Below are positions 3,476 through 44,180 of a DNA stretch of 64,000 bases, piece by piece (position 1 is the first letter of the stretch; the number at the start of each line of letters is the position of its first letter). The notes below the pieces were generated by a model. The model had not been told where the DNA came from, did not search any database, and saw nothing but the letters and a program-made list of their open reading frames with translations. The position numbers and the translations under genes are program-made. Origin of the DNA: Escherichia phage vB_Ec-M-J; the sequence record OQ718158.1. One strand, 5' to 3'.

Positions 3476-3504
3476 TTGACTTATTTTGTCAGTACTGGCA
3501 TAAT
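3476..3504 (+). promoter_or_regulatory. sigma70-like promoter upstream of conserved box
   Basis: TTGACT-17-CATAAT. Confidence 0.5.
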
Positions 3505-3536
3505 GTATTCATTGGCAGATAAGCCGTAGCCCATAG

Positions 3537-3565
3537 GGTGCGGGAGTGTATCTATAGAAAAATTA
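3537..3565 (+). promoter_or_regulatory. conserved ~29-bp box (TAGCCCAyAGGGTGC..GTGTATCTAT)
   Basis: one of about 10 copies in the window, always 25-50 bp downstream of a promoter. Confidence 0.5.
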
Positions 3566-3567
3566 GT

Positions 3568-3600
3568 TTAGTACAGTTACAATTGTGCACCCGGTGGGTT
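3568..3600 (-). promoter_or_regulatory. inverted copy of conserved box
   Basis: reverse complement of GTGCACCCGGTGGGTTAGC matches the box. Confidence 0.45.
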
Positions 3601-3619
3601 AGCTGTTGTCATGGGGTAT

Positions 3620-3648
3620 ATTATGCCAGTACTTGATAATGCTGTCAA
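3620..3648 (-). promoter_or_regulatory. leftward promoter convergent with 3476 promoter
   Basis: minus strand TTGACA-17-CATAAT. Confidence 0.45.
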
Positions 3649-3693
3649 TACTTTTTTAATATTCAGTACTGAAAACTATTTTTAAAAAGTACT

Positions 3694-3720
3694 TGCAAAC
3701 TATGTTTAAAGGCGTATAAT
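3694..3720 (+). promoter_or_regulatory. early promoter (no immediate hairpin; long leader)
   Basis: TTGCAA-15-TATAAT-GTTTTACATC. Confidence 0.6.
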
Positions 3721-3810
3721 GTTTTACATCAGGACGGGGAACGAAATAAGTAACTTCCCGTTAAGTAGCCCAGGAGTAAGGCACACGAAAAACTCCCCTG
3801 ATAAAATAGT
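3721..3810 (+). promoter_or_regulatory. structured ~90-nt leader, duplicated at 14175..14262
   Basis: CAGGACGGGGAACGAAA.AAGTAAC..CCCGTTAAGTAG.CCAGGAGTAAG...AAAAACTCCCCTGATAAAATAG nearly identical in both copies. Confidence 0.5.
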
Positions 3811-3838
3811 TTGACAATTGTTTTTAAAAGCGTATAAT
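3811..3838 (+). promoter_or_regulatory. second (tandem) promoter before 3871 gene
   Basis: TTGACA-16-TATAAT. Confidence 0.5.
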
Positions 3839-3870
3839 ACTTACATCAACTACTGAATGAGGGTTACAAA

Positions 3871-4545
3871 ATGAAAACTATCACTACTACTACTTTCGTT
3901 ATGGATTTTTCTGAATTGAATGAGGGTTGCAAAGCGAAAACTGTCACTAATACTACTTTCGTTATGGATTTTTCTGAATTGAACGCAGAACAAAAAACGT
4001 CAGCTATCGAACTGGTTCGGGAACGTGAAAAAAACTTAAACGATGATTATTTTTCTGAAAGTGAAATTGAATACTATAAAGAAACAGTACTACCGGAATA
4101 TGGCATTAATGACGCTGAAATACAATTCAGTGGTTTTTGGTCCCAGGGTGACGGTGCATCAATCAGTACTGACCACGTTGACGCAGTGAAGTTTTTACGC
4201 AAGGTAAGAGCATTAACTAAATATCGCTCAATCCGTCACTTGCTGAATGAAGATGATTTGGCGATGAGTGTAAAGCGTTCTCACTCCCACTACTCGCATG
4301 AGAATACTGTAAGCGGGTACATTGAATCGGCTTACACTGATTTAACCGCAAAACAAGAAACGTTAGTTAATGAGCTTGAGGAACTACTCACTGAAACTAT
4401 TCGTGAATTATCCCGCAAGTTGTACCGTGATTTAGAGAATGCATATGAGGATCAATTCACTACTGAAAACATTACGGCACTGATTGAGGGTAACGAATAT
4501 CAATTCAATGTTATTAATGGCGTAGTAGAATCAATCGAATATTAA
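3871..4545 (+). CDS. hypothetical protein (224 aa) with N-terminal tandem duplication
   Basis: track ORF; TTTFVMDFSELN(E/A) repeated twice near N-terminus. Confidence 0.7.
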   Translation: MKTITTTTFVMDFSELNEGCKAKTVTNTTFVMDFSELNAEQKTSAIELVREREKNLNDDYFSESEIEYYKETVLPEYGINDAEIQFSGFWSQGDGASISTDHVDAVKFLRKVRALTKYRSIRHLLNEDDLAMSVKRSHSHYSHENTVSGYIESAYTDLTAKQETLVNELEELLTETIRELSRKLYRDLENAYEDQFTTENITALIEGNEYQFNVINGVVESIEY

Positions 4546-6701: not shown

Positions 6702-6729
6702 TTGACATTACCGCAGAAAAGCGTAGAAT
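6702..6729 (+). promoter_or_regulatory. sigma70-like promoter with long leader
   Basis: TTGACA-16-TAGAAT. Confidence 0.5.
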
Positions 6730-6852
6730 GTATTACATCAAGACGGGGAGCACTAAGTAGACCGCCAGTAAGTCGAACGAAAAACTGGACACGTCGAGAA
6801 AACTTTGATACACTAATAAACGTAAACTAAACTTTAATTGAGGATTTATAAA

Positions 6853-7335
6853 ATGGCTAATGTAAAATCATTCATCAAAGCACTGGTAGCAAATGAAACT
6901 AACGTCGCGGCTGAGATCCTGGCTGAACTGGATAACGATACCATGAAAGCGGTACGCAATAATTTTAACATCGCGTACAGTACTGCGAAAGAACTACAAG
7001 CAAATAAAGCGGCAGAAATTGAAGCGGCAAAGGCTGCCCGTGAAGCAGAACTACAAGCAACAATCGAAAGTATTCAGGCGGCAGTAGTTGGATTGGATCT
7101 GGAAGTAGTTACAGAGATGGCACAAAAAGCCCTGGCGGTTAAGTATGGGGAAGACAAGCCAGAAGTAAAAGCCAAAAAATGGATTCAGGAACGCGTAGCG
7201 GTAGTACTGGATAATGGGGAAGAATATCTGATTCCGGTGCGTGGTAACTGTATTGCGGTAGTACTGGACGCGATTAACGCCAGCGGTATGACTCGCGAGG
7301 AATGGATCGAATCTCATCGCAAAGTTGAAGCATAA
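6853..7335 (+). CDS. hypothetical protein, Ala/Glu/Lys-rich helical N-terminus (160 aa)
   Basis: track ORF; start moved from TTG to ATG after RBS GAGG. Confidence 0.65.
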   Translation: MANVKSFIKALVANETNVAAEILAELDNDTMKAVRNNFNIAYSTAKELQANKAAEIEAAKAAREAELQATIESIQAAVVGLDLEVVTEMAQKALAVKYGEDKPEVKAKKWIQERVAVVLDNGEEYLIPVRGNCIAVVLDAINASGMTREEWIESHRKVEA

Positions 7336-7932: not shown

Positions 7933-8076
7933 ATGAAAACTTGTCAATGTGGTCAGAAATCTATTACGGGTTTAAAGCGGGGCGTTGCTCTTTGCCAGTA
8001 CCATTATAATTTACAAGTATGGGGTAAAGAATGGGCCGACCAGGTGGAAGCAGCAAAGAAAGCAAAAAGTAAGTAA
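7933..8076 (+). CDS. small Cys/His-containing protein (47 aa), not in ORF track
   Basis: ATG after RBS AAGGAA; CQCG...LCQYH could bind metal. Confidence 0.5.
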   Translation: MKTCQCGQKSITGLKRGVALCQYHYNLQVWGKEWADQVEAAKKAKSK

Positions 8077-8094
8077 AATATTATCACAGTACTA

Positions 8095-8123
8095 TTGACA
8101 TAGTTTGATAGTACTGGCATAAT
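8095..8123 (+). promoter_or_regulatory. class-B early promoter
   Basis: ATTATCACAGTACTATTGACA-17-CATAAT; same cassette at 8389, 11231, 11502, 19423. Confidence 0.6.
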
Positions 8124-8156
8124 AGATTTTATCAAGACAACTAAGAGGAAACAATA

Positions 8157-8369
8157 ATGGCTATCATCACAAAAATCAAAGTTAACAAATCACTGGTTAA
8201 ACTTGAACAAGTGAAAGCAGGTTATAAAGTATCGTGGTGCGGTATGTATCGGATGTTCACCGATATAGACAATGCAATCAAGTACTACACTGACACCGTT
8301 GCCTCATTCGTTCGTGCTGATGTGGTTATGGCAGTGGCAACGCACAAAGCAGCGAAAGAAAGTAAGTAA
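8157..8369 (+). CDS. hypothetical early protein (70 aa)
   Basis: track ORF; RBS AAGAGGAAA. Confidence 0.65.
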   Translation: MAIITKIKVNKSLVKLEQVKAGYKVSWCGMYRMFTDIDNAIKYYTDTVASFVRADVVMAVATHKAAKESK

Positions 8370-8388
8370 AAATATTATCACAGTACTA

Positions 8389-8417
8389 TTGACATAGTTT
8401 GATAGTACTGGCATAAT
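8389..8417 (+). promoter_or_regulatory. class-B early promoter
   Basis: TTGACA-17-CATAAT, near-identical to 8095 copy. Confidence 0.6.
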
Positions 8418-8458
8418 AGATTTTATCAAGACAACATATTAATTTAAGGAATACAAAA

Positions 8459-9739: not shown

Positions 9740-9886
9740 ATGAAAGCATCAAAAAAGAGTACTAACAAGAAAGCACGTTCAACCTTAGATGGGGTATTCC
9801 CTTTACGTTTCGTTGATGAAGTGGTTTCCTACCCGCCTGGCCTTACTCCTGAGATGGTAGAAAGTTTGCGTAAATCTAAAAAATAG
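9740..9886 (+). CDS. small basic protein (48 aa), not in ORF track
   Basis: ATG after RBS AAGGAA following promoter-hairpin. Confidence 0.5.
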   Translation: MKASKKSTNKKARSTLDGVFPLRFVDEVVSYPPGLTPEMVESLRKSKK

Positions 9887-9889
9887 TAC

Positions 9890-9949
9890 TTGCAATTAGT
9901 TTTTAGTACTGTATAATGTTTTACATGAAGGGGAGAAATGATTCTCCCC
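9890..9949 (+). promoter_or_regulatory. early promoter + 5' stem-loop
   Basis: TTGCAA-16-TATAAT; hairpin GGGGAGAAatgaTTCTCCCC. Confidence 0.6.
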
Positions 9950-10206: not shown

Positions 10207-10350
10207 ATGAATCCAACAGGTTTAAACTATAAAAGTTGTTCGGCGTTTACGAAAGCAAATAAAGCGAATGCACGTAAAGCGAAAGTACAGGAATACATCA
10301 AGCAAGGCATGACGCGAAAAGCGGCGATTATAAAAGCTAAAAATAAATGA
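10207..10350 (+). CDS. small Lys/Ala-rich basic protein (47 aa)
   Basis: ATG immediately after upstream TAA. Confidence 0.4.
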   Translation: MNPTGLNYKSCSAFTKANKANARKAKVQEYIKQGMTRKAAIIKAKNK

Positions 10351-10440
10351 AAAAAGTGGTTGACTCCGGTCAGCCATTTTGCTATTATATATTCATTGAG
10401 AGATAGCTCACTAGCCCACAGGGTGCATAAGTGTATCTAT
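10351..10440 (+). promoter_or_regulatory. composite element: terminator-like hairpin overlapping promoter, then conserved box
   Basis: AAAAAGTGGTTGACtccgGTCAGCC; TTGACT-17-TATTAT; TAGCCCACAGGGTGCATAAGTGTATCTAT. Confidence 0.55.
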
Positions 10441-10481
10441 TATATGAGTATTGAGTACTGAAAACTATTTTTAAAAAGTAC

Positions 10482-10998: not shown

Positions 10999-11211
10999 AT
11001 GGCTAATATCCGGTCGAAATTAAAAAATGCAAAACAAGTTTTATTTTCAGATCATGAATACTTTAATAAAGATATTACAGGAGTTACAAGTATCAAGGAA
11101 GTAAAAGAAAAAACCGGCGTTTTGTGTGATGTGCGATTAGTTGGGACATTTGGGAATAACGTGCTATATCGCTGCGGTGATTACAATTTTACACTGACTA
11201 TCATTAACTAA
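10999..11211 (+). CDS. hypothetical early protein (70 aa)
   Basis: track ORF; RBS GAGAGAGA. Confidence 0.6.
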   Translation: MANIRSKLKNAKQVLFSDHEYFNKDITGVTSIKEVKEKTGVLCDVRLVGTFGNNVLYRCGDYNFTLTIIN

Positions 11212-11230
11212 AAATATTATCACAGTACTA

Positions 11231-11259
11231 TTGACATAGTTTGATAGTACTGACATAAT
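11231..11259 (+). promoter_or_regulatory. class-B early promoter
   Basis: TTGACA-17-CATAAT. Confidence 0.55.
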
Positions 11260-11294
11260 AACTTTTATCAACTACACTACTAAGGAATTAAAAA

Positions 11295-13853: not shown

Positions 13854-13999
13854 AAGAATTCTTATTTGAAGTAGTGTTTCAAGGTGTCGGTAGTAACCAA
13901 CTGATTCGCTCAAGTGGTTACAATGTTAACCAGGCATGGAATAACATTAAACAAATGTACCCGAACGCTATCACATATCGCAACCCGAAAGAAGTTTAA
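13850..13999 (+). CDS. small protein (49 aa), not in ORF track
   Basis: ATGA overlap with upstream stop; coordinates +/-1. Confidence 0.4.
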   Translation: MKEFLFEVVFQGVGSNQLIRSSGYNVNQAWNNIKQMYPNAITYRNPKEV

Positions 14000-14005
14000 A
14001 AATAA

Positions 14006-14092
14006 TTGAAAAAGGGATTGACTCCGGTCAGTCCCTTTGCTATTATATACGCATAGAAACAAATTAGCCCACCGGGTGCATAAATGTATCTA
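14006..14092 (+). promoter_or_regulatory. composite element: hairpin/promoter + conserved box
   Basis: AAAAAGGGATTGACtccgGTCAGTCCC; TTGACT-17-TATTAT; TAGCCCACCGGGTGCATAAATGTATCTAT. Confidence 0.55.
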
Positions 14093-14146
14093 TTGTTTGC
14101 TGGTGGCTAGTACTATCAAGTACTGAAAACTATTTTTAAAAAGTAC

Positions 14147-14174
14147 TTGCAAAGTATCACGATAAGCGTATAAT
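14147..14174 (+). promoter_or_regulatory. early promoter (long leader)
   Basis: TTGCAA-16-TATAAT-GTTTTACATC. Confidence 0.6.
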
Positions 14175-14262
14175 GTTTTACATCAGGACGGGGAACGAAA
14201 CAAGTAACCCCGTTAAGTAGTCCAGGAGTAAGACATACGAAAAACTCCCCTGATAAAATAGT
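14175..14262 (+). promoter_or_regulatory. structured leader, second copy of 3721..3810
   Basis: near-identical sequence to 3721..3810. Confidence 0.5.
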
Positions 14263-14290
14263 TTGACAATAGAAAGTAAACGAGTATAAT
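14263..14290 (+). promoter_or_regulatory. second (tandem) promoter before 14324 gene
   Basis: TTGACA-16-TATAAT. Confidence 0.5.
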
Positions 14291-14323
14291 ACTTACATCA
14301 ACCACTGATAAGGAAACATTAAA

Positions 14324-16689: not shown

Positions 16690-17274
16690 ATGCGTAATTA
16701 TACTAAATTCATCCGTACACTGTCAGAAATGGAAACCAACAAAGAGATCCTTTCAGCTTGTCGGTTAGCTGGACTGGAGATCATCGGTGCTGGTTCTTCC
16801 CGTATAGTATTCGCTTTAAATGATCGGTTAGTGATTAAGGTCGCGAATTGTGATGCGGGTGTAGAACAAAATGAAACTGAATGTAAGGTATGGAATTTTT
16901 TAGACTATGACCGCCCTCAGTTGAAACAGTACTTTGCAAAGGTGCATATGCATTTATGCGATCCTGATAATATGTTTATCGTTATGGATCGGTTGAGTAC
17001 TGCAAGTAAAGGCAGTGTGAAGCACGTTAACGCGTGCAATGAATTAAAGTACAATATTAAACGTAATGCAATTGAACGCCAGCACCGCTTTGCTGATGCA
17101 CTACAACACGTCGATGATACATTATCAACACTAACGATAAGAGATATCAGAAAACAGAATATCGGCCAGGATCGTAATGGCCTTATTAAAGTACTTGATT
17201 ACGGTTTAACCTGCAATATCTGGAATCAGTACTATAAAAAGCGTGATGTGGCAGCAAGTAAGGTAACACGATAA
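16690..17274 (+). CDS. putative protein kinase-like protein (Hanks-type motifs)
   Basis: IIGAGSSRIV (G-x-G loop), VIKVA (Lys), IRDIRKQN (catalytic loop), VLDYGL (DFG-like) in canonical order and spacing; RBS AAGGAG. Confidence 0.5.
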   Translation: MRNYTKFIRTLSEMETNKEILSACRLAGLEIIGAGSSRIVFALNDRLVIKVANCDAGVEQNETECKVWNFLDYDRPQLKQYFAKVHMHLCDPDNMFIVMDRLSTASKGSVKHVNACNELKYNIKRNAIERQHRFADALQHVDDTLSTLTIRDIRKQNIGQDRNGLIKVLDYGLTCNIWNQYYKKRDVAASKVTR

Positions 17275-17280
17275 AAAAGA

Positions 17281-17370
17281 TTAAAAAAGGGATTGACTCC
17301 GGTCAGTCCCTTTGCTATTATATATTCATTGAGAGATAACTCACTGACCCATAGGGTGCGGAAGTGTATC
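17281..17370 (+). promoter_or_regulatory. composite element: hairpin/promoter + conserved box
   Basis: AAAAAAGGGATTGACtccgGTCAGTCCC; TTGACT-17-TATTAT; TGACCCATAGGGTGCGGAAGTGTATCTAT. Confidence 0.55.
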
Positions 17371-17416
17371 TATTATATAAGTATTCAGTACTGAAAACTA
17401 TTTTAAAAAAAAGTAC

Positions 17417-17476
17417 TTGCATTGTACTTAGAATCAAGTATAATGTTTTATATCGAGAGGGGGAAATGGTTCTCCC
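17417..17476 (+). promoter_or_regulatory. early promoter + 5' stem-loop
   Basis: TTGCAT-16-TATAAT; hairpin GGGGGAAatggTTCTCCC. Confidence 0.6.
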
Positions 17477-19177: not shown

Positions 19178-19402
19178 ATGGCTAACTTTGATGAACTGAT
19201 GCGGGAAGTAGCTAACCTGGCAGAAGAGAAGAAATCATTCGATTCTATCTATAACACCGCTCACCGTGATTCAGTACTGGCATGTAACCAGGATCAAAAA
19301 GATGAACTAATCGCCACCTATCATGAAGCATGGAAGTACTACCGACAATGGGAGAAAGAAGAAAGTGAGTCTACCATCGAAGGTATCAATAATCTAATCT
19401 AA
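19178..19402 (+). CDS. hypothetical early protein (74 aa)
   Basis: track ORF; RBS AAGGAG. Confidence 0.65.
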   Translation: MANFDELMREVANLAEEKKSFDSIYNTAHRDSVLACNQDQKDELIATYHEAWKYYRQWEKEESESTIEGINNLI

Positions 19403-19422
19403 AAGTTTTATTTCAGTACTAT

Positions 19423-19450
19423 TGACATAGCTTGATAGTACTGATGTAAT
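19423..19450 (+). promoter_or_regulatory. class-B early promoter
   Basis: TTGACA-16-TGTAAT. Confidence 0.5.
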
Positions 19451-19478
19451 AACTTTACTAACTACAAGGGGAAACATA

Positions 19479-20027: not shown

Positions 20028-20036
20028 CAAAAAAGA

Positions 20037-20126
20037 ATAAAAAAGGGATTGACTCCGGTCAGTCCCTTTGCTATTATATACGCATAGACAAAAACTAGCC
20101 CACAGGGTGCATAAGTGTATCCAAAA
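20037..20126 (+). promoter_or_regulatory. composite element: hairpin/promoter + conserved box
   Basis: AAAAAAGGGATTGACtccgGTCAGTCCC; TTGACT-17-TATTAT; TAGCCCACAGGGTGCATAAGTGTATCC. Confidence 0.55.
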
Positions 20127-23582: not shown

Positions 23583-23781
23583 GTTTCAGTATCATTGGAG
23601 GTTACAAGCTATAAGAAGGAAAGTTGTTAGTATTTCTTTAGACAAGTCTATTGCACAAGAGGACAAATGTGTTATAATAGCTGAAATGAAGTTGGGTGTA
23701 TTCGTAGGAACAAACTATCAAAACATCTACACTGACGTATTGTTAAGTGCCTTACGTAACAAGGTGATATCAAAAGAATGA
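23566..23781 (+). CDS. F1 paralog
   Basis: track ORF; FVGTNYQNIYTDVLL. Confidence 0.55.
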   Translation: MITLNEFQYHWRLQAIRRKVVSISLDKSIAQEDKCVIIAEMKLGVFVGTNYQNIYTDVLLSALRNKVISKE

Positions 23782-23996
23782 GAAAATTAATAGGTTACGA
23801 ATATGTTAAGCTTCTGAAAACATGTGCCAACAGAAGAGTAAAGATTCAATCTGATAAGAGCATCCCTGCCAACCTAAAACATGCAATGGTAGCTGAACTC
23901 TATGCAGGGGCACTCATAGGGACAAACTATCAACAAATGTATATAGACATGTGGGTTGATGCATTAGTCAAGGAGATCCAAAGTAAATGCAAATGA
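23778..23996 (+). CDS. F1 paralog
   Basis: ATGA overlap; LIGTNYQQMYIDMWV. Confidence 0.55.
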   Translation: MRKLIGYEYVKLLKTCANRRVKIQSDKSIPANLKHAMVAELYAGALIGTNYQQMYIDMWVDALVKEIQSKCK

Positions 23997-24205
23997 TTAA
24001 TTTAAGTAAAGATGAATATTATGTTCGTCTTGCAAAAACTTATCCAGCACGTAACGCCGTTTATAATAGTAACATTATTGAACGCTCAAAGAAGTTGATT
24101 GTAGTAAATGAGATTAAGATGCTTTCAGTCTTAGGAACAAACTATCAAGAGAATGCTGTACTGTTGTTAATTGATGCCCTCAAGAGAGAGATACAAAGTA
24201 AATGA
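23987..24205 (+). CDS. F1 paralog
   Basis: track ORF; LGTNYQENAVLLLI. Confidence 0.55.
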   Translation: MQMINLSKDEYYVRLAKTYPARNAVYNSNIIERSKKLIVVNEIKMLSVLGTNYQENAVLLLIDALKREIQSK

Positions 24206-24441
24206 TTAATTTATCTTTCCATGAATATCAAAAACGTTTAAATGCATCAAGGGATATAAGGATTCAAATCTTCAATAACAAAAAATTGAAACCTGACACC
24301 AGAAGAATCAAAATAATAGAAGCAGAGTTATGCAACTTCCTGGGGACGAACCATCAGGAAGGTAAGATAAAAAACTATCTTAGAGAACTAATGATTTGTA
24401 TCGAAAATAAATGTGATGCTTTGGAGAATAAAAATGATTAA
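24202..24441 (+). CDS. F1 paralog
   Basis: ATGA overlap; LGTNHQEGKIKNYL. Confidence 0.55.
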   Translation: MINLSFHEYQKRLNASRDIRIQIFNNKKLKPDTRRIKIIEAELCNFLGTNHQEGKIKNYLRELMICIENKCDALENKND

Positions 24442-24691
24442 TTTAAGTAAAGATGAATATACCGAGCGTATGACAAAAATTACGCACAAACGTAATACAA
24501 TCTATCACAACCCAGAAATTCAACACAGTAAGAAAATGATTATGATGCGTGAGTTAAAGATGGGTGTATTCTTGGGAACAAACTATCAAGAGCCAGAAGT
24601 AAATCGATTAATTGATGAGTTACTATTGGAAATCAAAGGTAAGCTGTACTTTCATCAAATGACCCAACCACTGAGGTGTACTGATCGATGA
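24434..24691 (+). CDS. F1 paralog
   Basis: start moved to ATG after RBS GGAG (track 24413); LGTNYQEPEVNRLI. Confidence 0.55.
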   Translation: MINLSKDEYTERMTKITHKRNTIYHNPEIQHSKKMIMMRELKMGVFLGTNYQEPEVNRLIDELLLEIKGKLYFHQMTQPLRCTDR

Positions 24692-24939
24692 ATGCGATGA
24701 ATATTGTGAATAACATCAGATTAGCAGAAAGATTTGATAGAATTGGGGAAGCACTGAGAAGATACGATAAAGAATATGGTCATTTGAGCTTTTCTATAGA
24801 AAAGAGATATGAACTTGAAGCAGAGTTTAAAATGCAGAGTCTCTTAGGCACACAGTATCAAAACCAATATATTCAAACTTGGATTGATTGTTTAATCCAG
24901 ACAATTTACGTAAGAAACATTAAATGCAAAATGAAATGA
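24688..24939 (+). CDS. F1 paralog
   Basis: ATGA overlap; LGTQYQNQYIQTWI. Confidence 0.55.
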   Translation: MNAMNIVNNIRLAERFDRIGEALRRYDKEYGHLSFSIEKRYELEAEFKMQSLLGTQYQNQYIQTWIDCLIQTIYVRNIKCKMK

Positions 24940-25184
24940 TATACTTAACCTATAATGAATACGTCGAGAGATTAGTTCGTGCCAAGAGATATACCAATAA
25001 ACGTCCAATTGACCTAAACCAAACCCCAGCAGAAAGGAGTGCAGAAGTATTATTCCAATCACTACCATATCTTCTGGGAACTGATAGACAAGAGGAATAT
25101 GTTGCACGTATGATTAGATATCTTAAAATCACTATTAAGGAAAAAGTAAATGCAAATGCAAATGAAATACTTAACAGACGATGA
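24924..25184 (+). CDS. F1 paralog
   Basis: track ORF; LGTDRQEEYVARMI. Confidence 0.5.
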   Translation: MQNEMIYLTYNEYVERLVRAKRYTNKRPIDLNQTPAERSAEVLFQSLPYLLGTDRQEEYVARMIRYLKITIKEKVNANANEILNRR

Positions 25185-25407
25185 GTTAAAAGAACGATTA
25201 ATTAAATCCAGAAAACTTACAAATCAACTTCCAAACGACACAAACAAGTCACATGCCGAAAGGAGTGCAGAAGTTTTATACATTCAACTCCTGTACTTTC
25301 TTGGAACTGACAGACAAGAGTATTACATTGAAAGTATGCTTCGATATCTTAAATTCTCTATAAAGGAAAAGGTACATGCTCAAGAATTTAAAAATCCTAA
25401 CAGTTAA
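25150..25407 (+). CDS. F1 paralog
   Basis: track ORF; LGTDRQEYYIESML; close paralog of 24924 gene. Confidence 0.5.
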   Translation: MQMQMKYLTDDELKERLIKSRKLTNQLPNDTNKSHAERSAEVLYIQLLYFLGTDRQEYYIESMLRYLKFSIKEKVHAQEFKNPNS

Positions 25408-27360: not shown

Positions 27361-27688
27361 TATAAAACTCAAGGTATATAAATCATTTGCAAGTACATAC
27401 ATCAAATGCCATACATGTAACTCTGTAATGGACTACAAAGGTAAGCCATTTGCACTTACTTACGATAATACAAGAGGTTTTTATATATCTTTTGCTGATT
27501 ACAAATATAACATATACGAACACATTGACATTGAAGATTTAAGTACTTTATCTGAAGAGGAATACTTTCAAGAATCATTAGTATGGGATTTGGAGTTTCC
27601 TATGTCATTGGTACATAAGATGATAGTACTAATAAAAGAAACTAAGCCTGTACCTAATGGTTATGAAGATCACATTATTGAGTATTAA
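27350..27688 (+). CDS. F2 paralog (EExxFQ-S motif protein)
   Basis: track ORF; SEEEYFQESL; N-terminal C-x-x-C. Confidence 0.6.
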   Translation: MKTNIKLKVYKSFASTYIKCHTCNSVMDYKGKPFALTYDNTRGFYISFADYKYNIYEHIDIEDLSTLSEEEYFQESLVWDLEFPMSLVHKMIVLIKETKPVPNGYEDHIIEY

Positions 27689-27702
27689 TATATAAGGTAA
27701 CT

Positions 27703-28044
27703 ATGAAAACTAATATACAACTCAATGTATACAGTTCAGAAGAACATACATATATCAAATGCAGTCTATGTAAAGATGTAATGGACTACAAAGGTAAGCC
27801 ATTCACAATTACCTATGATTCTGATGTTAATGATTTATATATATCATTTCTTAATTACGAAAATAAAATATACAAGCACGTTGATATTAAAGATTTAAGT
27901 ACTTTATCAGCAGAGGAATACTTTCAGGAATCATTAGTATGGGATTTAGAGTTTCCTATGCCATTAGTACATAAGATGGTAGTACTAATGAAAGAAGCTA
28001 AACCAGAGTTTAACGGTTATGAAGAACACACAATTGAGTATTAA
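27703..28044 (+). CDS. F2 paralog
   Basis: track ORF; SAEEYFQESL; close paralog of 27350 gene. Confidence 0.6.
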   Translation: MKTNIQLNVYSSEEHTYIKCSLCKDVMDYKGKPFTITYDSDVNDLYISFLNYENKIYKHVDIKDLSTLSAEEYFQESLVWDLEFPMPLVHKMVVLMKEAKPEFNGYEEHTIEY

Positions 28045-28260
28045 ATGAAAAGATTATCATACAAAGATTACACCAATCTTATCAGGACTTTACAACCAGA
28101 AATTAAAAGAATTAATTCTCTTCCTATATCTCCTACAGATTGTGCAGTACTGAAAGATGAGTTAATCTTAAAACACACAGTAGGAACAAACTATCAAGCT
28201 GATAGTGTTCGATATTTAATTTGGGGGTTGATGTGTCAAATAAAGTCCAAATGCAAATGA
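28045..28260 (+). CDS. F1 paralog
   Basis: ATG adjacent to upstream stop; VGTNYQADSVRYLI. Confidence 0.55.
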   Translation: MKRLSYKDYTNLIRTLQPEIKRINSLPISPTDCAVLKDELILKHTVGTNYQADSVRYLIWGLMCQIKSKCK

Positions 28261-37174: not shown

Positions 37175-37558
37175 ATGAAGATGCAAATAAAATATAATGA
37201 ATTTTGTGCAAGGACATTCATGTACACTGGTGAATTAGTTACGCACTGTAACTTATACAAGGGTGATTTAAACTACACAAGGGACAAGCTTATAAAATAC
37301 GAAAATGCTGACTTTTATTTGATGGATTTTAGTACTGGGTTTCATGGGATATCTATCGAGATGCCGGACTATACCGTACTTGATGATGCTGCACTGTTTC
37401 AGGAGGCATTAGTATTTGATAAGAAGTACATCTGTACATTAGAAGAGATAGTTGAAATCCAGCGTAGAATTAAATGTATTCACAGGGAATGTATAGATAT
37501 CTGGTGCAGGACTGGTGAGGCTGATTTCTGGAAATTTTTTAATCTAGGGGAAGAGTGA
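37175..37558 (+). CDS. F2 paralog (CNL.KGD subfamily)
   Basis: start chosen by alignment with 37555 and 37911 paralogs (track 37064); DAALFQEAL. Confidence 0.5.
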   Translation: MKMQIKYNEFCARTFMYTGELVTHCNLYKGDLNYTRDKLIKYENADFYLMDFSTGFHGISIEMPDYTVLDDAALFQEALVFDKKYICTLEEIVEIQRRIKCIHRECIDIWCRTGEADFWKFFNLGEE

Positions 37559-37914
37559 TGGAATTTGATTTTGTAATATCAGTACATTCTTTTAAGAACA
37601 GTTTTCAGTACTTTTGTAATTTAAACAAAGGTGATTTAATGCACAGTGCAAATGAGTATATTCATTACACTCAGGGTAAATTTACATTCATTGATTACAA
37701 TTCATTACAGTATCCACATCAAGATATGCCGGACTATACAGTAATGGATGCCGCTGAACTATTTCAGGAGTCATTAGTATTTGATAAGAAGTACTTGTGT
37801 ACATTTGAAGAAGTAATTGCAATACAAAATGAAATGAAAGAGTATGACTCTTTGAATAAAGGCAATGTCAGTATTAATCAAGAATACAAATTCAATATAG
37901 GAATTCCAGAATGA
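37555..37914 (+). CDS. F2 paralog (CNL.KGD subfamily)
   Basis: ATGA overlap; AAELFQESLVFDKKYLCT. Confidence 0.6.
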   Translation: MMEFDFVISVHSFKNSFQYFCNLNKGDLMHSANEYIHYTQGKFTFIDYNSLQYPHQDMPDYTVMDAAELFQESLVFDKKYLCTFEEVIAIQNEMKEYDSLNKGNVSINQEYKFNIGIPE

Positions 37915-38255
37915 CATTTGATTTTTCTATGTTTATACCTAAGATTAGTACTTCACTGGAAGTGTATTGCAATCTTAACAAAGGTGATTATGAACACAAA
38001 ATGGATCAGTACATTAAATTTAATGGTTCTTACTTTAGCTTCATTGATTATCAGGCCAAAGGAACAGTTGTAGAAAATATGAAAGACTATGCAACTGTAC
38101 ATGGTGAGGCTGAAATATTTCAAGAGTCATTAATATTTGACAAGAAGTACTTGTGTACACTAGAGGAAGTTATTGAACTCCAACAGAAGATGAAAGAATA
38201 TAGAAGAATCTGCATAGAGACTGATTCCAAAGATAGGTATTGTTTTAAGCTATGA
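37911..38255 (+). CDS. F2 paralog (CNL.KGD subfamily)
   Basis: ATGA overlap; EAEIFQESLIFDKKYLCT. Confidence 0.6.
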   Translation: MTFDFSMFIPKISTSLEVYCNLNKGDYEHKMDQYIKFNGSYFSFIDYQAKGTVVENMKDYATVHGEAEIFQESLIFDKKYLCTLEEVIELQQKMKEYRRICIETDSKDRYCFKL

Positions 38256-38438: not shown

Positions 38439-38909
38439 ATGAGTTTTTCAAGAGCATTAGAAATTGCTAAGTTAATTGATTTATGTAAAAAGGAAATAGT
38501 ACTCAATCGTCTCAATGGGTATCTATTCAAGGAAGGTAAAGCTTATTGTCGAATGATATACGATGACAGTAGTGAGTACATTCACATGTACGAAGAAAAC
38601 TTAGATTCTTCTGAAACAACACTCACTGGGTGTGATGTTAATCTGGAAGATAATTACATGTACTTCTGTCGTGATGCTGATATTTTAATACAATATACTG
38701 ACATTATAACTGGTGCAGCAGAAAAACATCTTCCGTATTCAGTACTGGATAATGACTGGGGAAGTGAAGAGTTCTACTTCCAGCAGAATACTATCTACGA
38801 GGAATATGTGCTTGACAAGCTTGTCATTCTGTGGTACTTTAATAATACCGATTGTCCTAGCTTCTATCTGGACTTGGATCTACTACGAGTTATTAAAGAG
38901 GATATATGA
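38439..38909 (+). CDS. F2 paralog (WG.EE.YFQ / WYF subfamily)
   Basis: track ORF; DNDWGSEEFYFQQNT...VILWYF. Confidence 0.6.
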   Translation: MSFSRALEIAKLIDLCKKEIVLNRLNGYLFKEGKAYCRMIYDDSSEYIHMYEENLDSSETTLTGCDVNLEDNYMYFCRDADILIQYTDIITGAAEKHLPYSVLDNDWGSEEFYFQQNTIYEEYVLDKLVILWYFNNTDCPSFYLDLDLLRVIKEDI

Positions 38910-39346
38910 GTTTAGCAAGTGCACTTAAACTGGCACACAAAATACATCACTTCCACGATAACATAAAAAGTGGTTTCTATGGTGATAAAGTAAGTGCATT
39001 TGGTAATGAGTATTATCTATCAGGTATAAAGACATACTCTGATGATATTTTACTTATGGGCCATGATAAAGACAATACTATACAGTACTCTTCATGTAGT
39101 CAATATACTAGTTTTTTTGTATATATTCCAGGTACTAAGATTACTTTTGACACATCAAATACACCTGTTGACTTCGGGATACTTGATGGGCCGTGGGGTA
39201 CTGAAGAGTATTACTTCCAACAGAGTCTTATTTTTAACCAAGAAATGCTTGATTCCTTGGTTGTTTTGTGGTACTTTAAGGAATTGAATTTTGAACCCTT
39301 CTTCCTTGACTGGGGAGCATGTGAATATTTAAGTACAGGGGATTAG
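38906..39346 (+). CDS. F2 paralog (WYF subfamily)
   Basis: ATGA overlap; GPWGTEEYYFQQSL. Confidence 0.6.
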   Translation: MSLASALKLAHKIHHFHDNIKSGFYGDKVSAFGNEYYLSGIKTYSDDILLMGHDKDNTIQYSSCSQYTSFFVYIPGTKITFDTSNTPVDFGILDGPWGTEEYYFQQSLIFNQEMLDSLVVLWYFKELNFEPFFLDWGACEYLSTGD

Positions 39347-39348
39347 TA

Positions 39349-39837
39349 ATGTCATTACAAAGTGCATTGAAAGAAGCAAAGAAGATTCATGAGTACATGA
39401 TTATGGTACAAGAAGGTTCAGTGCCTGGTGTGTATAAAACATCTGATACTGAATTTTTTGTAAAAGACCGCGACGATTATGATGAGTCAGAGATACATGC
39501 AGAAACGTTAGTACTACACACTGATACGGGTGATACTGATGACTGTGAATATCATATGTACAATCAATACATTAGTTATTGTAGAGATGAAGATATTATA
39601 ATTTACAGCCCTGATTACGATGATTATGACACAATCATTCCGTATTCAGTACTGGAAGGTCCGTGGGACAGTGAGGAATATTACTTCCAGAACAGTACTG
39701 TGTACAATGAAGAAGAATTAGATGTTATTGTAATTATGTGGTACTTTAAAAGTATTGGTTCTGGTAGTTTCTATTTCGATTATGAATACGTAGAGAATAC
39801 TGTAGGGGAAGATAATGTCATTACGAAGTGCTCTTGA
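39349..39837 (+). CDS. F2 paralog (WYF subfamily)
   Basis: track ORF; GPWDSEEYYFQNST. Confidence 0.6.
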   Translation: MSLQSALKEAKKIHEYMIMVQEGSVPGVYKTSDTEFFVKDRDDYDESEIHAETLVLHTDTGDTDDCEYHMYNQYISYCRDEDIIIYSPDYDDYDTIIPYSVLEGPWDSEEYYFQNSTVYNEEELDVIVIMWYFKSIGSGSFYFDYEYVENTVGEDNVITKCS

Positions 39838-40258
39838 TAAAGCAAAAGAACTACAGGCATATATTGAAGATATTAAGGCTGGGAAGTTCGAAGAAGTATA
39901 CAAAGCCGAGAATGGTAACTACTACAAGGATTGTGATTTTGCTACAACTACAGTTATTCTTGGGTTGAATTCCAAAAGTCCCGCAGATTTTTCACAATAC
40001 AATCCAGATGCAGAATTTATCAGTTATGCTTATGGTGGTGAAATCCGTTTTTATAATCGCAGCAGACCTTTAAAATTGAACTTTGAAGTACTGAAAGGTC
40101 CGTGGGATAGTGAAGAGTATTACTTTCAGAATAGTACTTTGTATGATGATGAAGTACTAGATACTTTAGTTATTATGTGGTACTTTAAAAGTATTGATAG
40201 CACAAGATTTTATTTGGATTATGAATATGTACGTGCAGCACATAAGGGTAAACGATGA
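39815..40258 (+). CDS. F2 paralog (WYF subfamily)
   Basis: track ORF; GPWDSEEYYFQNST. Confidence 0.6.
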   Translation: MSLRSALDKAKELQAYIEDIKAGKFEEVYKAENGNYYKDCDFATTTVILGLNSKSPADFSQYNPDAEFISYAYGGEIRFYNRSRPLKLNFEVLKGPWDSEEYYFQNSTLYDDEVLDTLVIMWYFKSIDSTRFYLDYEYVRAAHKGKR

Positions 40259-43492: not shown

Positions 43493-43852
43493 ATGAATAC
43501 CATTAGTATTACGTACTACACAACGAAAAAATACGTTTGTTGTTTACTTTCATTAAAGACAAATGATGATATGTTTGAAATGGCGGCATATACATTAGGA
43601 TTATCCGAGGATGGTTTTCAATGTCATGAAGCGTACTCAAATACACGTGAAGATACAATTGATACTACTTTAATGCAAGAAGATGAGTTGTTTCAAGAAA
43701 GTTTAGTATGGGATAAAAAATACTATTGTGATTTTGATTTTCTTTGTTTAATCCAGAAAGAAATGAAAAGGATCTTCGACAATTATCCGGTGAAGAGATT
43801 GAGTACTAAGCCGGAGCAGTACAGGAGAATTTTATTCCGTTATGAAGACTGA
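43493..43852 (+). CDS. F2 paralog
   Basis: track ORF; EDELFQESLVWDKKYYC. Confidence 0.55.
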   Translation: MNTISITYYTTKKYVCCLLSLKTNDDMFEMAAYTLGLSEDGFQCHEAYSNTREDTIDTTLMQEDELFQESLVWDKKYYCDFDFLCLIQKEMKRIFDNYPVKRLSTKPEQYRRILFRYED

Positions 43853-44180
43853 ATTAGTAAAAATAATGTACGCAACTCACACCAAGTTATTATTGGTTAA
43901 AATGGATTACAACAGAAAACATAATGAATTCTGTACATTAATCCGAAATGAGGAATCATTTACATTGCGTACAAATGATAAGCCAATGCTAACTATAAAT
44001 GATTTTTCAGGTTTAGATACAGGTGAATTGTTTCAGGAGTCATTAGTACTGGATAGTAGTATACATTTGGAAATTGAAGTACTACAACAGTACCAGATAC
44101 TTTTGAATCGTATTATGGAAAATTATCCATGTGAAGTTGGTGGACCAATGCAATTCAAATCAAAGATGTATGAACTATGA
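43842..44180 (+). CDS. F2 paralog
   Basis: track ORF; TGELFQESL. Confidence 0.55.
   Translation: MKTELVKIMYATHTKLLLVKMDYNRKHNEFCTLIRNEESFTLRTNDKPMLTINDFSGLDTGELFQESLVLDSSIHLEIEVLQQYQILLNRIMENYPCEVGGPMQFKSKMYEL

Follow-up and report, generated by a model that had tools for sequence, protein, structure and literature searches.

The element considered here lies in the early region of Escherichia phage vB_Ec-M-J, within a stretch of 64,000 nucleotides (nt) from sequence record OQ718158.1 that was analysed as a whole, one strand, 5' to 3' (hereafter the window). The window is ~98% identical to the Asteriusvirus jumbo coliphages PBECO4, G17 and Sharanji, and its early ~21 kb corresponds to the direct terminal repeat of 20,993 bp (PMC13070987) of phage fEgEco12, where copies of the element lie at 3.4 and 5.9 kb, twice per record. 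Positions 1-21 kb of the window contain ~25 near-identical early promoter cassettes of the form AGTACTTGCAA-N17-TATAAT-GTTTTAC-A(+1)UCGAGAGGGG, in which the start site is followed in order by a GC hairpin, a Shine-Dalgarno (SD) sequence and a small gene (for example at 1663-1713, 2123-2173, 9876-9926 and 17403-17453). Nearly every early gene has its own promoter, some early promoters are embedded in terminators (e.g. 14011-14046), and terminator-like hairpins are present in the jumbo-phage early region. In the segment under study, the slot held by a simple 5' hairpin in neighbouring cassettes is taken by a structured RNA domain, three copies of which (A, B and C) lie within these promoter-dense first ~21 kb.

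Copies A and B were noticed in a preliminary description as a duplicated segment at 3721..3810 and 14175..14262, placed each time between an early promoter and a second TTGACA-16-TATAAT promoter and upstream of two unrelated genes. Both copies are found at these positions, and the promoter coordinates confirm the arrangement, with P1 (TTGCAA-16-TATAAT) upstream and P2 (a perfect TTGACA-16-TATAAT) downstream; the open reading frames (ORFs) that follow start at 3871 and 14324 and indeed belong to different PHROGs, both of unknown function. Two sub-patterns of the segment (23-25 nt) have two exact matches each in the 64 kb, against an expectation of 0 from 100 shuffles. Pairwise alignment shows that copies A (3728-3802) and B (14182-14254) are 92% identical and differ by a 2-nt indel, and that the duplicated block is longer than first described, extending over 3664-3857 and 14118-14311. 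Within this block, identity is 97-100% over the promoter hexamers and the UP-like region but only 56% in both promoter spacers, and in the flanks it is ~51%. The similarity thus reaches beyond the promoters, and because the segment is 92% identical when both spacers have drifted to 56%, its conservation cannot be put down to that of the promoters it accompanies: the segment itself is conserved.

At the level of RNA, the domain is ~65-75 nt long and is closed by an outer helix, within which an invariant UAA is followed by a classical H-type pseudoknot; a hairpin (hp1) is an optional part. The core reads UAAGUAGNC, followed by a hairpin with the loop (A)UAAGN'C..ACGAAAAA. In the order of the pseudoknot, the 5' strand of helix S1 (GUAGNC) is followed by loop L1 of 1-2 nt, the 5' strand of helix S2 (4-5 nt), loop L2 ((A)UAA), the 3' strand of S1 (GN'C.NAC), loop L3 (GAAAAA) and the 3' strand of S2; S1 is formed by the linker GUAGNC pairing with GN'C.NAC inside the loop of the S2 hairpin. 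A three-way junction results in copies A and B, where the outer helix begins with the very 5' end of the RNA and hp1 branches off; the single-sequence minimum-free-energy (MFE) fold agrees with this. The internal complementarity claimed earlier held in part: CAGG..CCTG belongs to the outer helix (AUCAGG/CCUGAU), whereas a GGGG..CCCC pairing is not supported by covariation. The GGGG pairs locally with CCC(C)GU to make hp1; of the downstream CUCC-CCUGAU run, one part belongs to S2 and the other to the outer helix.

Evidence for this fold comes from compensatory changes. In an alignment of the core from 30 distinct sequences, 94.8% of cells are paired, compared with 19-37% when the partners are slid, and the covariation score is 0.329 against 0.105 in shuffles, none of 500 being as good. 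The S1 pair N:N' (10-23) is AU in 22 sequences, CG in 3, UA in 3 and GC in 1, with 1 mismatch; within the window it is C-G in copy A, U-A in copy B and A-U in copy C, the change of the S1 middle pair between A and B being compensatory. S2 occurs as CCUG/CAGG, CUUG/CAAG, CCAG/CUGG, GGAG/CUCC and UCCUG/CAGGA. The outer helix has at least 10 complementary versions (GUCAA:UUGAC, GAUUAG:CUAAUC, GUCGGU:ACCGAC, GUCAUC:GAUGAC, GCUAA:UUAGC, GUCAC:GUGAC, AACGAA:UUCGUU, GCGGC:GUCGC, AUCAGG:CCUGAU and AUCAAG:CUUGAU). In an alignment of T7-type sequences (see below), four helices (hp1, outer, S1 and S2) are paired in 92.6% of cells against 21-30% when slid, and 11 of the 21 pairs change on both sides, again with 0 of 500 shuffles as good; the value for hp1 (86.5% paired) is conservative, since MAFFT slipped by 1 nt in register at hp1 in a few of these sequences. 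RNAalifold independently returned the outer helix and S2. Moreover, G.U pairs are found on the + strand only: there are 10 at the closing pair of S2 and a U.G in one locus (L031), and other cases are ACG to AUG in S1 and CCCUGU in hp1 of the 121Q copy. On the opposite strand each of these would read as an A.C mismatch, which identifies the + strand RNA as the functional molecule. Single-sequence folding gave modest z-scores (-1.75 and -3.2), whereas covariation in relatives is strong, so support for the structure rests on the latter and not on single-sequence folding. Covariation across phages and the strand-fixing G.U pairs strongly support the earlier suggestion of a conserved, structured non-coding RNA; the structure is under purifying selection at the RNA level, and between unrelated phage families ~25 positions, unpaired or tertiary, hardly vary. 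In the Salmonella phage KE18 (L041 376-437), an insertion of ~20 nt within the S2 loop carries a small hairpin, CAGUUGAACACUG, which indicates that this loop position tolerates an extra helix.

The domain is not restricted to jumbo phages. A BLAST search with copy C, which has diverged from A and B, gave an unexpected match at ~nt 550-590 of T7-like podophages. In T7 (NC_001604) the core reads ATAAGTAGACAGCCTGATAAGTCGCACGAAAAACAGG and lies at nt ~551-600, between the annotated Escherichia coli promoters A1 (498) and A2 (626); it ends 2 nt before the -35 hexamer of A2, and in phiA1122 it likewise ends just before this hexamer. Judged by sequence, the element of the window is homologous to the one in the T7 A1-A2 interval, and counterparts in T3, phiYeO3-12, phiA1122, K1F-like and KP32-like phages, CR8 and LIMElight have the homologous core, the same pseudoknot and an outer helix. 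As in the window, the element in T7-type leaders is 3' of the first sigma70 early promoter and 5' of the second. The initial transcribed sequence of the window cassettes, AUCGAGAGGGG, matches that of T7 A1, AUCGAGAGGGA, so the promoter and start region seem to be common to jumbo and T7-like phages. By homology with the annotated A1 start, (A)TCGAGAGGG, transcription of copy A is inferred to begin at A3728. T7-type leaders differ in that the hp1 loop supplies the outer helix with its 5' strand, making a second pseudoknot, that the 3' strand of this helix is usually the A2 -35 hexamer itself, and that a separate 5' hairpin precedes the domain. T7-type genomes carry one copy, compared with three per terminal repeat in the jumbo phage.

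Searches with a T7-type query matched 510 phage records, with one copy apiece and hosts that are all Enterobacterales. A degenerate pattern, generalised after the T7 match, found 32 loci in IMG/VR viral contigs and 20 in metagenome contigs; the only match among 185,579 bacterial and archaeal species genomes was one contig, itself T7-like, and there was none in 5,426 complete E. coli genomes or in 72,556 plasmids. A host origin of the element, or mimicry of a host sequence, was rejected on the basis of these species-genome, E. coli and plasmid searches. Two IMG/VR patterns drawn from the jumbo copies alone were too specific and gave no matches, and a looser pattern gave many chance loci, which were filtered with a covariance model (CM; two of them, L095 and L100, were discarded as spurious).

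Among Justusliebigvirus and Vequintavirinae phages, whose genomes are of 145 kb, counterparts of copies A and B occur with ~90% identity. In the Justusliebigvirus muut, the stretch from the RNA through the end of the 14324-type gene is 97.6% identical to the copy B unit, with flanks of 52-60%, which indicates a recent cassette transfer between otherwise unrelated surroundings. In EmilieFrey and outra, the same P1-RNA-P2 module stands before a different gene that has its own complete standard cassette. The element is also present in the Rak2-like jumbo phages Munch and fENko-Kae01, in Erwinia phage Hallingskeid, in LTH01 and A7_1, in LIMElight and CR8, and in an Autographiviridae-like lineage where it follows the terminase/lysis end. 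The form of copy C (type C) is common to Hallingskeid, LTH01 and EJP2. Every instance examined by reading has a same-strand promoter of the sigma70 type 20-85 nt upstream of it, and the distance from the element to the next promoter ranges from 0 to >40 nt, some copies having no second promoter. Altogether, the element is confined to leaders transcribed early by host RNA polymerase (RNAP) in virulent phages of Enterobacterales.

The coordinates of the three copies in the window are given in Table 1. A CM of the core has exactly three matches in the window, which are copies A (3760-3802, 51.4 bits), B (14212-14254, 53.6 bits) and C (6752-6794, 51.4 bits), all three having been used to build the model. 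The three copies also fit the sequence pattern of the family, UAAGUAG with N-C after it and an S2 hairpin with the loop (A)UAAG-N'-C-..-ACGAAARA.

Table 1. Positions of the promoters, RNA domains and structural parts of copies A, B and C in the window.
Feature	Position	Strand	Basis or remark
Duplicated block A: UP-like region, P1, RNA domain, P2, start of P2 5' untranslated region (UTR)	3664..3857	+	Alignment, identity by segment; partner 14118-14311
Promoter P1, copy A, TTGCAA-16-TATAAT	3693..3720	+	One of ~25 near-identical early cassettes
RNA domain, copy A	3728..3802	+	Sequence, MFE fold, covariation, CM hit
Outer helix, copy A	AUCAGG 3728-3733 with CCUGAU 3797-3802	+	MFE fold
hp1, copy A	3734-3761	+	MFE fold
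Invariant UAA, copy A	3762-3764	+	
S1, copy A	5' strand GUAGCC 3765-3770; 3' strand GGCACAC 3780-3786	+	Covariation
S2, copy A	5' strand GGAG 3773-3776; 3' strand CUCC 3793-3796	+	Covariation, MFE fold
Loops, copy A	L1 3771-3772; L2 UAA 3777-3779; L3 GAAAAA 3787-3792	+	
Promoter P2, copy A, perfect TTGACA-16-TATAAT	3811..3838	+	Serves gene 3871 without the RNA domain
Promoter P1, copy B	14147..14174	+	
RNA domain, copy B	14182..14254	+	Outer helix 14182-14187 with 14249-14254
hp1, copy B, ACGGGG/CCCCGU	14188-14213	+	
UAA and S1, copy B	UAA 14214-14216; S1 5' strand GUAGUC 14217-14222; S1 3' strand GACAUAC 14232-14238	+	
S2 and L3, copy B	S2 14225-14228 with 14245-14248; L3 14239-14244	+	
Promoter P2, copy B	14263..14290	+	
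Promoter, copy C, TTGACA-16-TAGAAT	6702..6729	+	
RNA domain, copy C (type C: without hp1, without P2)	6737..6809	+	mRNA 5' end for the gene that starts at 6853
Outer helix, copy C	AUCAAG 6737-6742 with CUUUGAU 6803-6809	+	
Second tier, copy C	GACG 6742-6745 with CGUC 6792-6795	+	
UAA and S1, copy C	UAA 6754-6756; S1 5' strand GUAGAC 6757-6762; S1 3' strand GUCGAAC 6772-6778	+	
S2 and L3, copy C	S2 CCAG 6765-6768 with CUGG 6785-6788; L3 6779-6784	+	

The element does not correspond to a catalogued RNA. With Rfam 15 no family matched the window at gathering score, and nothing was found in 3700-3880 at E up to 10; the T7 leader gave only a chance snoRNA match (E 8.6). ARAGORN found 0 tRNA or tmRNA genes in the window. 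In the searchable full-text literature, sequence searches included and subscription titles outside reach, the motif is not described as a structured RNA, while its sequence occurs incidentally in a T7 CRISPRi paper and in an RNAP-inhibitor paper. The element seems to define a widely distributed RNA family, T7 included, that has not been catalogued. Coding explanations were also considered. A small ORF at 3719-3814 (31 amino acids) has its ATG inside the -10 hexamer, before the putative start of transcription, and its frame is broken in copy B by the 2-nt indel, so the sole ORF across copy A is ruled out; a possible mini-ORF with an SD and an ACG start was rejected because neither copy C nor the T7-type copies preserve it.

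The domain is independent of the gene that follows. The proteins encoded downstream of element copies belong to four unrelated PHROGs of unknown function, so a shared function of the downstream genes was rejected, and the genes neighbouring the element gave only PHROGs of unknown function and nothing significant in a Pfam search. Gene 3871 itself begins in a 63-nt tandem duplication at 3854-3983 (2.1 copies, 92% identical) that covers its SD, start codon and first ~17 codons; in the second unit the ATG is replaced by GCG, and the region differs by ~275 nt in length among related phages, which may reflect repeat number.

In the explanation proposed here, the domain has its own promoter and would serve as a self-contained RNA module that binds a conserved component of the host as infection begins; we regard this reading as evenly poised between right and wrong. 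Host RNAP would transcribe the domain from the early promoter P1, P1 making the RNA and P2 the mRNA of the gene. The invariant unpaired nucleotides, held in the compact fold, would be presented to the conserved host component in the first moments of infection, and the domain could act as a decoy or sequestering RNA or as a modifier. The base-paired 5' end, which starts from the inferred +1 in the jumbo copies, would also give a long-lived RNA. An autonomous host-binding module is suggested by the combination of a selected compact fold, a place in the part of the genome that enters the cell first and is expressed earliest, independence of the downstream gene, restriction to one host order and mobility between phages. 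More tentatively, the element may represent an undescribed class of phage RNA, a pseudoknot domain of the first seconds of infection that binds and inhibits, hijacks or senses a conserved Enterobacterales component, or is catalytic; candidate targets within this possibility are RNAP, the RNA-decay machinery and an RNA-sensing defence system.

Several points weigh against a host-binding module. There is no evident 3' end, either terminator or processing site, for a discrete small RNA, which is a possible form of the product. The domain is known here from its sequence, its start site is placed through T7 A1, and its host partner is a postulate. Copy C and the type C element of EJP2 have no P2 and are plain mRNA 5' ends, so a cis role (e.g. 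stabilisation) fits them at least as well. The search patterns fixed ~20 core positions (UAAGUAG, UAAG, ACGAAA), and the invariance of the core is therefore partly a matter of ascertainment, unbiased covariation coming from the N positions only; many of the aligned sequences are closely related, and the cell counts given above are not counts of events.

A role in cis, in processive antitermination or anti-pausing, is considered unlikely. Here the nascent domain would bind its own RNAP, alone or with Nus-type factors, and carry it past pauses, Rho sites and terminators. The models for such a role, HK022 put and Bacillus EAR, are structured cis-acting antitermination RNAs of ~70-120 nt that work independently of the identity of the downstream gene and are comparable to the element in size and degree of structure. 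The element shares with them this size and structure and a leader position just 3' of a host-RNAP promoter, here the first strong one, whatever gene follows. Moreover, an rrn-like boxA (GCTCTTTAA) lies 54-431 nt downstream in most T7-type leaders and ~20-25 nt past the end of the domain in one lineage (L024/L076), and terminator-like hairpins are present in the jumbo early region. However, no sequence or fold similarity to put or EAR is seen, the put fold being two simple hairpins, and downstream promoters bypass the element: transcripts from P2 in the window and from A2 and A3 in T7 serve the same genes without the domain. Read-through is also not obviously needed, since nearly each early gene of the window has its own promoter. 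There is no boxA near any jumbo-phage copy; none (YGCTCTTTAACAA) was found near the window copies, the 7 two-mismatch hits in the window all lying on the minus strand beyond 36 kb and in a number no greater than chance, and an obligatory partnership with boxA was rejected on this ground. In purified systems, the early terminator of T7 stops transcripts initiated at A1 with high efficiency, which argues against a factor-independent modification of the put type.

That the domain only stabilises the 5' end, as an elaborate GC hairpin that opposes 5'-end-dependent decay by RNase E/RppH and has no specific partner, is improbable. It holds the same slot as the generic 5' hairpin, its outer helix begins at the inferred +1 in the jumbo copies, and copy C and the type C element of EJP2 are plain mRNA 5' ends with no P2. 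A stem would suffice for this purpose, yet ~25 near-invariant positions and a covarying pseudoknot are kept; T7-type leaders already have their separate 5' hairpin upstream of the domain, and with P2 in between, most of the mRNA of the downstream gene would not carry the domain at all.

Small ribozymes such as twister, pistol and HDV-like ribozymes are similar to the element in compactness of fold, size and number of invariant nucleotides, and they are common in phages. A new self-cleaving ribozyme, or a dedicated processing signal that trims P1 transcripts, would be in keeping with this compact pseudoknot, whose size and invariant nucleotides are within the small-ribozyme range, but there is little to recommend it otherwise: no Rfam 15 ribozyme matched even at E up to 10, the order of the helix strands is unlike that of HDV, pistol and hammerhead in our own comparison, no candidate cleavage site was identified, and trimming would bring no obvious benefit given P2.

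The preliminary description favoured a cis-regulatory RNA or small RNA, and the first of these, as a riboswitch-like or protein-operated regulator of the next gene, now seems very unlikely. A structured, aptamer-like core in a 5' leader is what would be expected of such a regulator. The downstream genes are unrelated and vary, P2 intervenes and bypasses the element in copies A and B (two of the three copies), the first gene of T7 is ~330 nt and two promoters further on, no Rfam riboswitch matched, and on reading the sequences no expression platform was seen, neither an alternative terminator/antiterminator nor a pairing that sequesters the SD. The least tenable account is a feature of DNA only, either an UP element or promoter context for P2 or a recombination cassette, which could appeal to the A-rich L3 at ~-47 to -43 of A2 and the use of the A2 -35 as outer-helix strand in T7-type leaders, and to the movement of the whole P1-RNA-P2-gene cassette between phage families, but is largely refuted by covariation, since a site in duplex DNA would have no use for compensatory changes or for G.U pairs on one strand only, the gap between core and next promoter varies from 0 to >40 nt with some copies lacking a second promoter (an UP-element-only role for P2 was rejected on this variable spacing and the covariation), and adjacent promoter spacers drift freely when the element does not.

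Among known RNAs, compact H-type pseudoknots with an A-rich third loop are found in the SAM-II and preQ1 aptamers, the leader of T4 gene 32 and the units of ToxI. The element has the same order of parts (S1-L1-S2-L2-S1'-L3-S2'), a short L1 and a leader location, and its A-rich L3 could sit in the minor groove of S1. It differs from this class in having no Rfam match, no expression platform, no tandem repeats and no adjacent toxin gene, and no cognate phage protein is common to all carrier phages. The antitoxin RNA ToxI consists of tandem pseudoknot repeats of ~34-36 nt beside the gene of an endoribonuclease toxin; a type III antitoxin was rejected for the element, which occurs as single units, not in tandem, next to genes that have only PHROGs of unknown function and no significant Pfam hit.

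At the scale of the genome, a possible parallel is with the PeSL cassettes of T4-type phages, presented as composite promoter-terminator motifs in the accessible parts of two papers (PMC2839356, PMC4122927). As far as these parts go, repeated early-promoter cassettes flank small variable early genes and are shuffled between phages, and positions 1-21 kb of the window are similar; the copy B P1-RNA-P2-gene unit has moved between Asteriusvirus and Justusliebigvirus in what resembles PeSL shuffling. Measured against the same parts of the two papers, the element differs in being a 75-nt pseudoknotted RNA located 3' of a promoter, not a terminator-promoter composite, in being conserved far beyond the needs of homology for recombination, and in its presence in podophages without cassette arrays.

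The unpaired positions of the element are kept nearly base for base across Autographiviridae, Rak2-like jumbo phages, Justusliebigvirus and Vequintavirinae. Taken with the exchange of cassettes and the absence of the element from the genomes of bacteria and from plasmids, this conservation across families suggests that host takeover by virulent Enterobacterales phages includes a general step based on RNA, an idea that is directly testable by T7 genetics. The element also illustrates how early-gene cassettes travel with their regulatory RNAs between unrelated phages. The early promoter region of T7 is textbook material, and A1 together with the sequence that naturally follows it is much used in transcription biochemistry; if the element does represent an undescribed class, the A1-A2 interval would encode a functional RNA that has so far gone unnoticed. 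The element also bears on phage engineering: it is present, whole or truncated, in refactored T7 genomes and in expression cassettes built on A1.

Other repeats were noticed around the element and in its relatives. The hp1 loops of copies A (3742-3754) and B (14194-14207) contain AACGAAAUAAGUAAC, and in the T7 leader a hairpin just 5' of boxA (L004 430-465, ~nt 779-814), GGUCUAACGAAACCUGACC followed by CGCUCUUUAACAA, has a loop that contains UAACGAAAC; the core words ACGAAA and UAAGU thus recur in other leader loops. The A2-A3 interval of T7 is also conserved among T7-like phages, with an A-rich run before the -35 of A3. A second repeated non-coding module is found at 13998-14090, 17273-17365, 20029-20121 and 10340-10477, and also at 3476-3560, with a reverse-oriented relative at ~3588-3648 that has a minus-strand promoter (3648->3620). 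It consists of a terminator-like hairpin (AAAGGGATTGACTCCGGTCAGTCCCTTT) that contains the -35 hexamer, then a -10 and a short transcript with the conserved hairpin AGCCCACCGGGTGC / GCCCATAGGGTGCGG. This module, which may be another small RNA or a terminator-promoter composite, lies directly upstream of copies A and B, and in Salmonella phage Munch a similar one stands ahead of the element (L005 1190-1250). Four copies of a 67-nt repeat, two of them 100% identical, are present (8075-8141, 8369-8435, 11211-11277 and 19402-19468); the repeat carries an extended -10 promoter, TTGACA-17-(TG)CATAAT, unlike the main cassettes. Repeats with a period of 8 nt at 757-916 (GGCTAGAT / GGCTAAAC / GGATGGCT) have the appearance of an iteron-like or protein-binding array. 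Beyond the early region, families of direct repeats with a spacing of 220-470 nt and 64-85% identity (23650-24592, 24914-25365, 27478-28065, 37358-38195, 38734-40231 and 43661-44055) resemble arrays of paralogous small genes.

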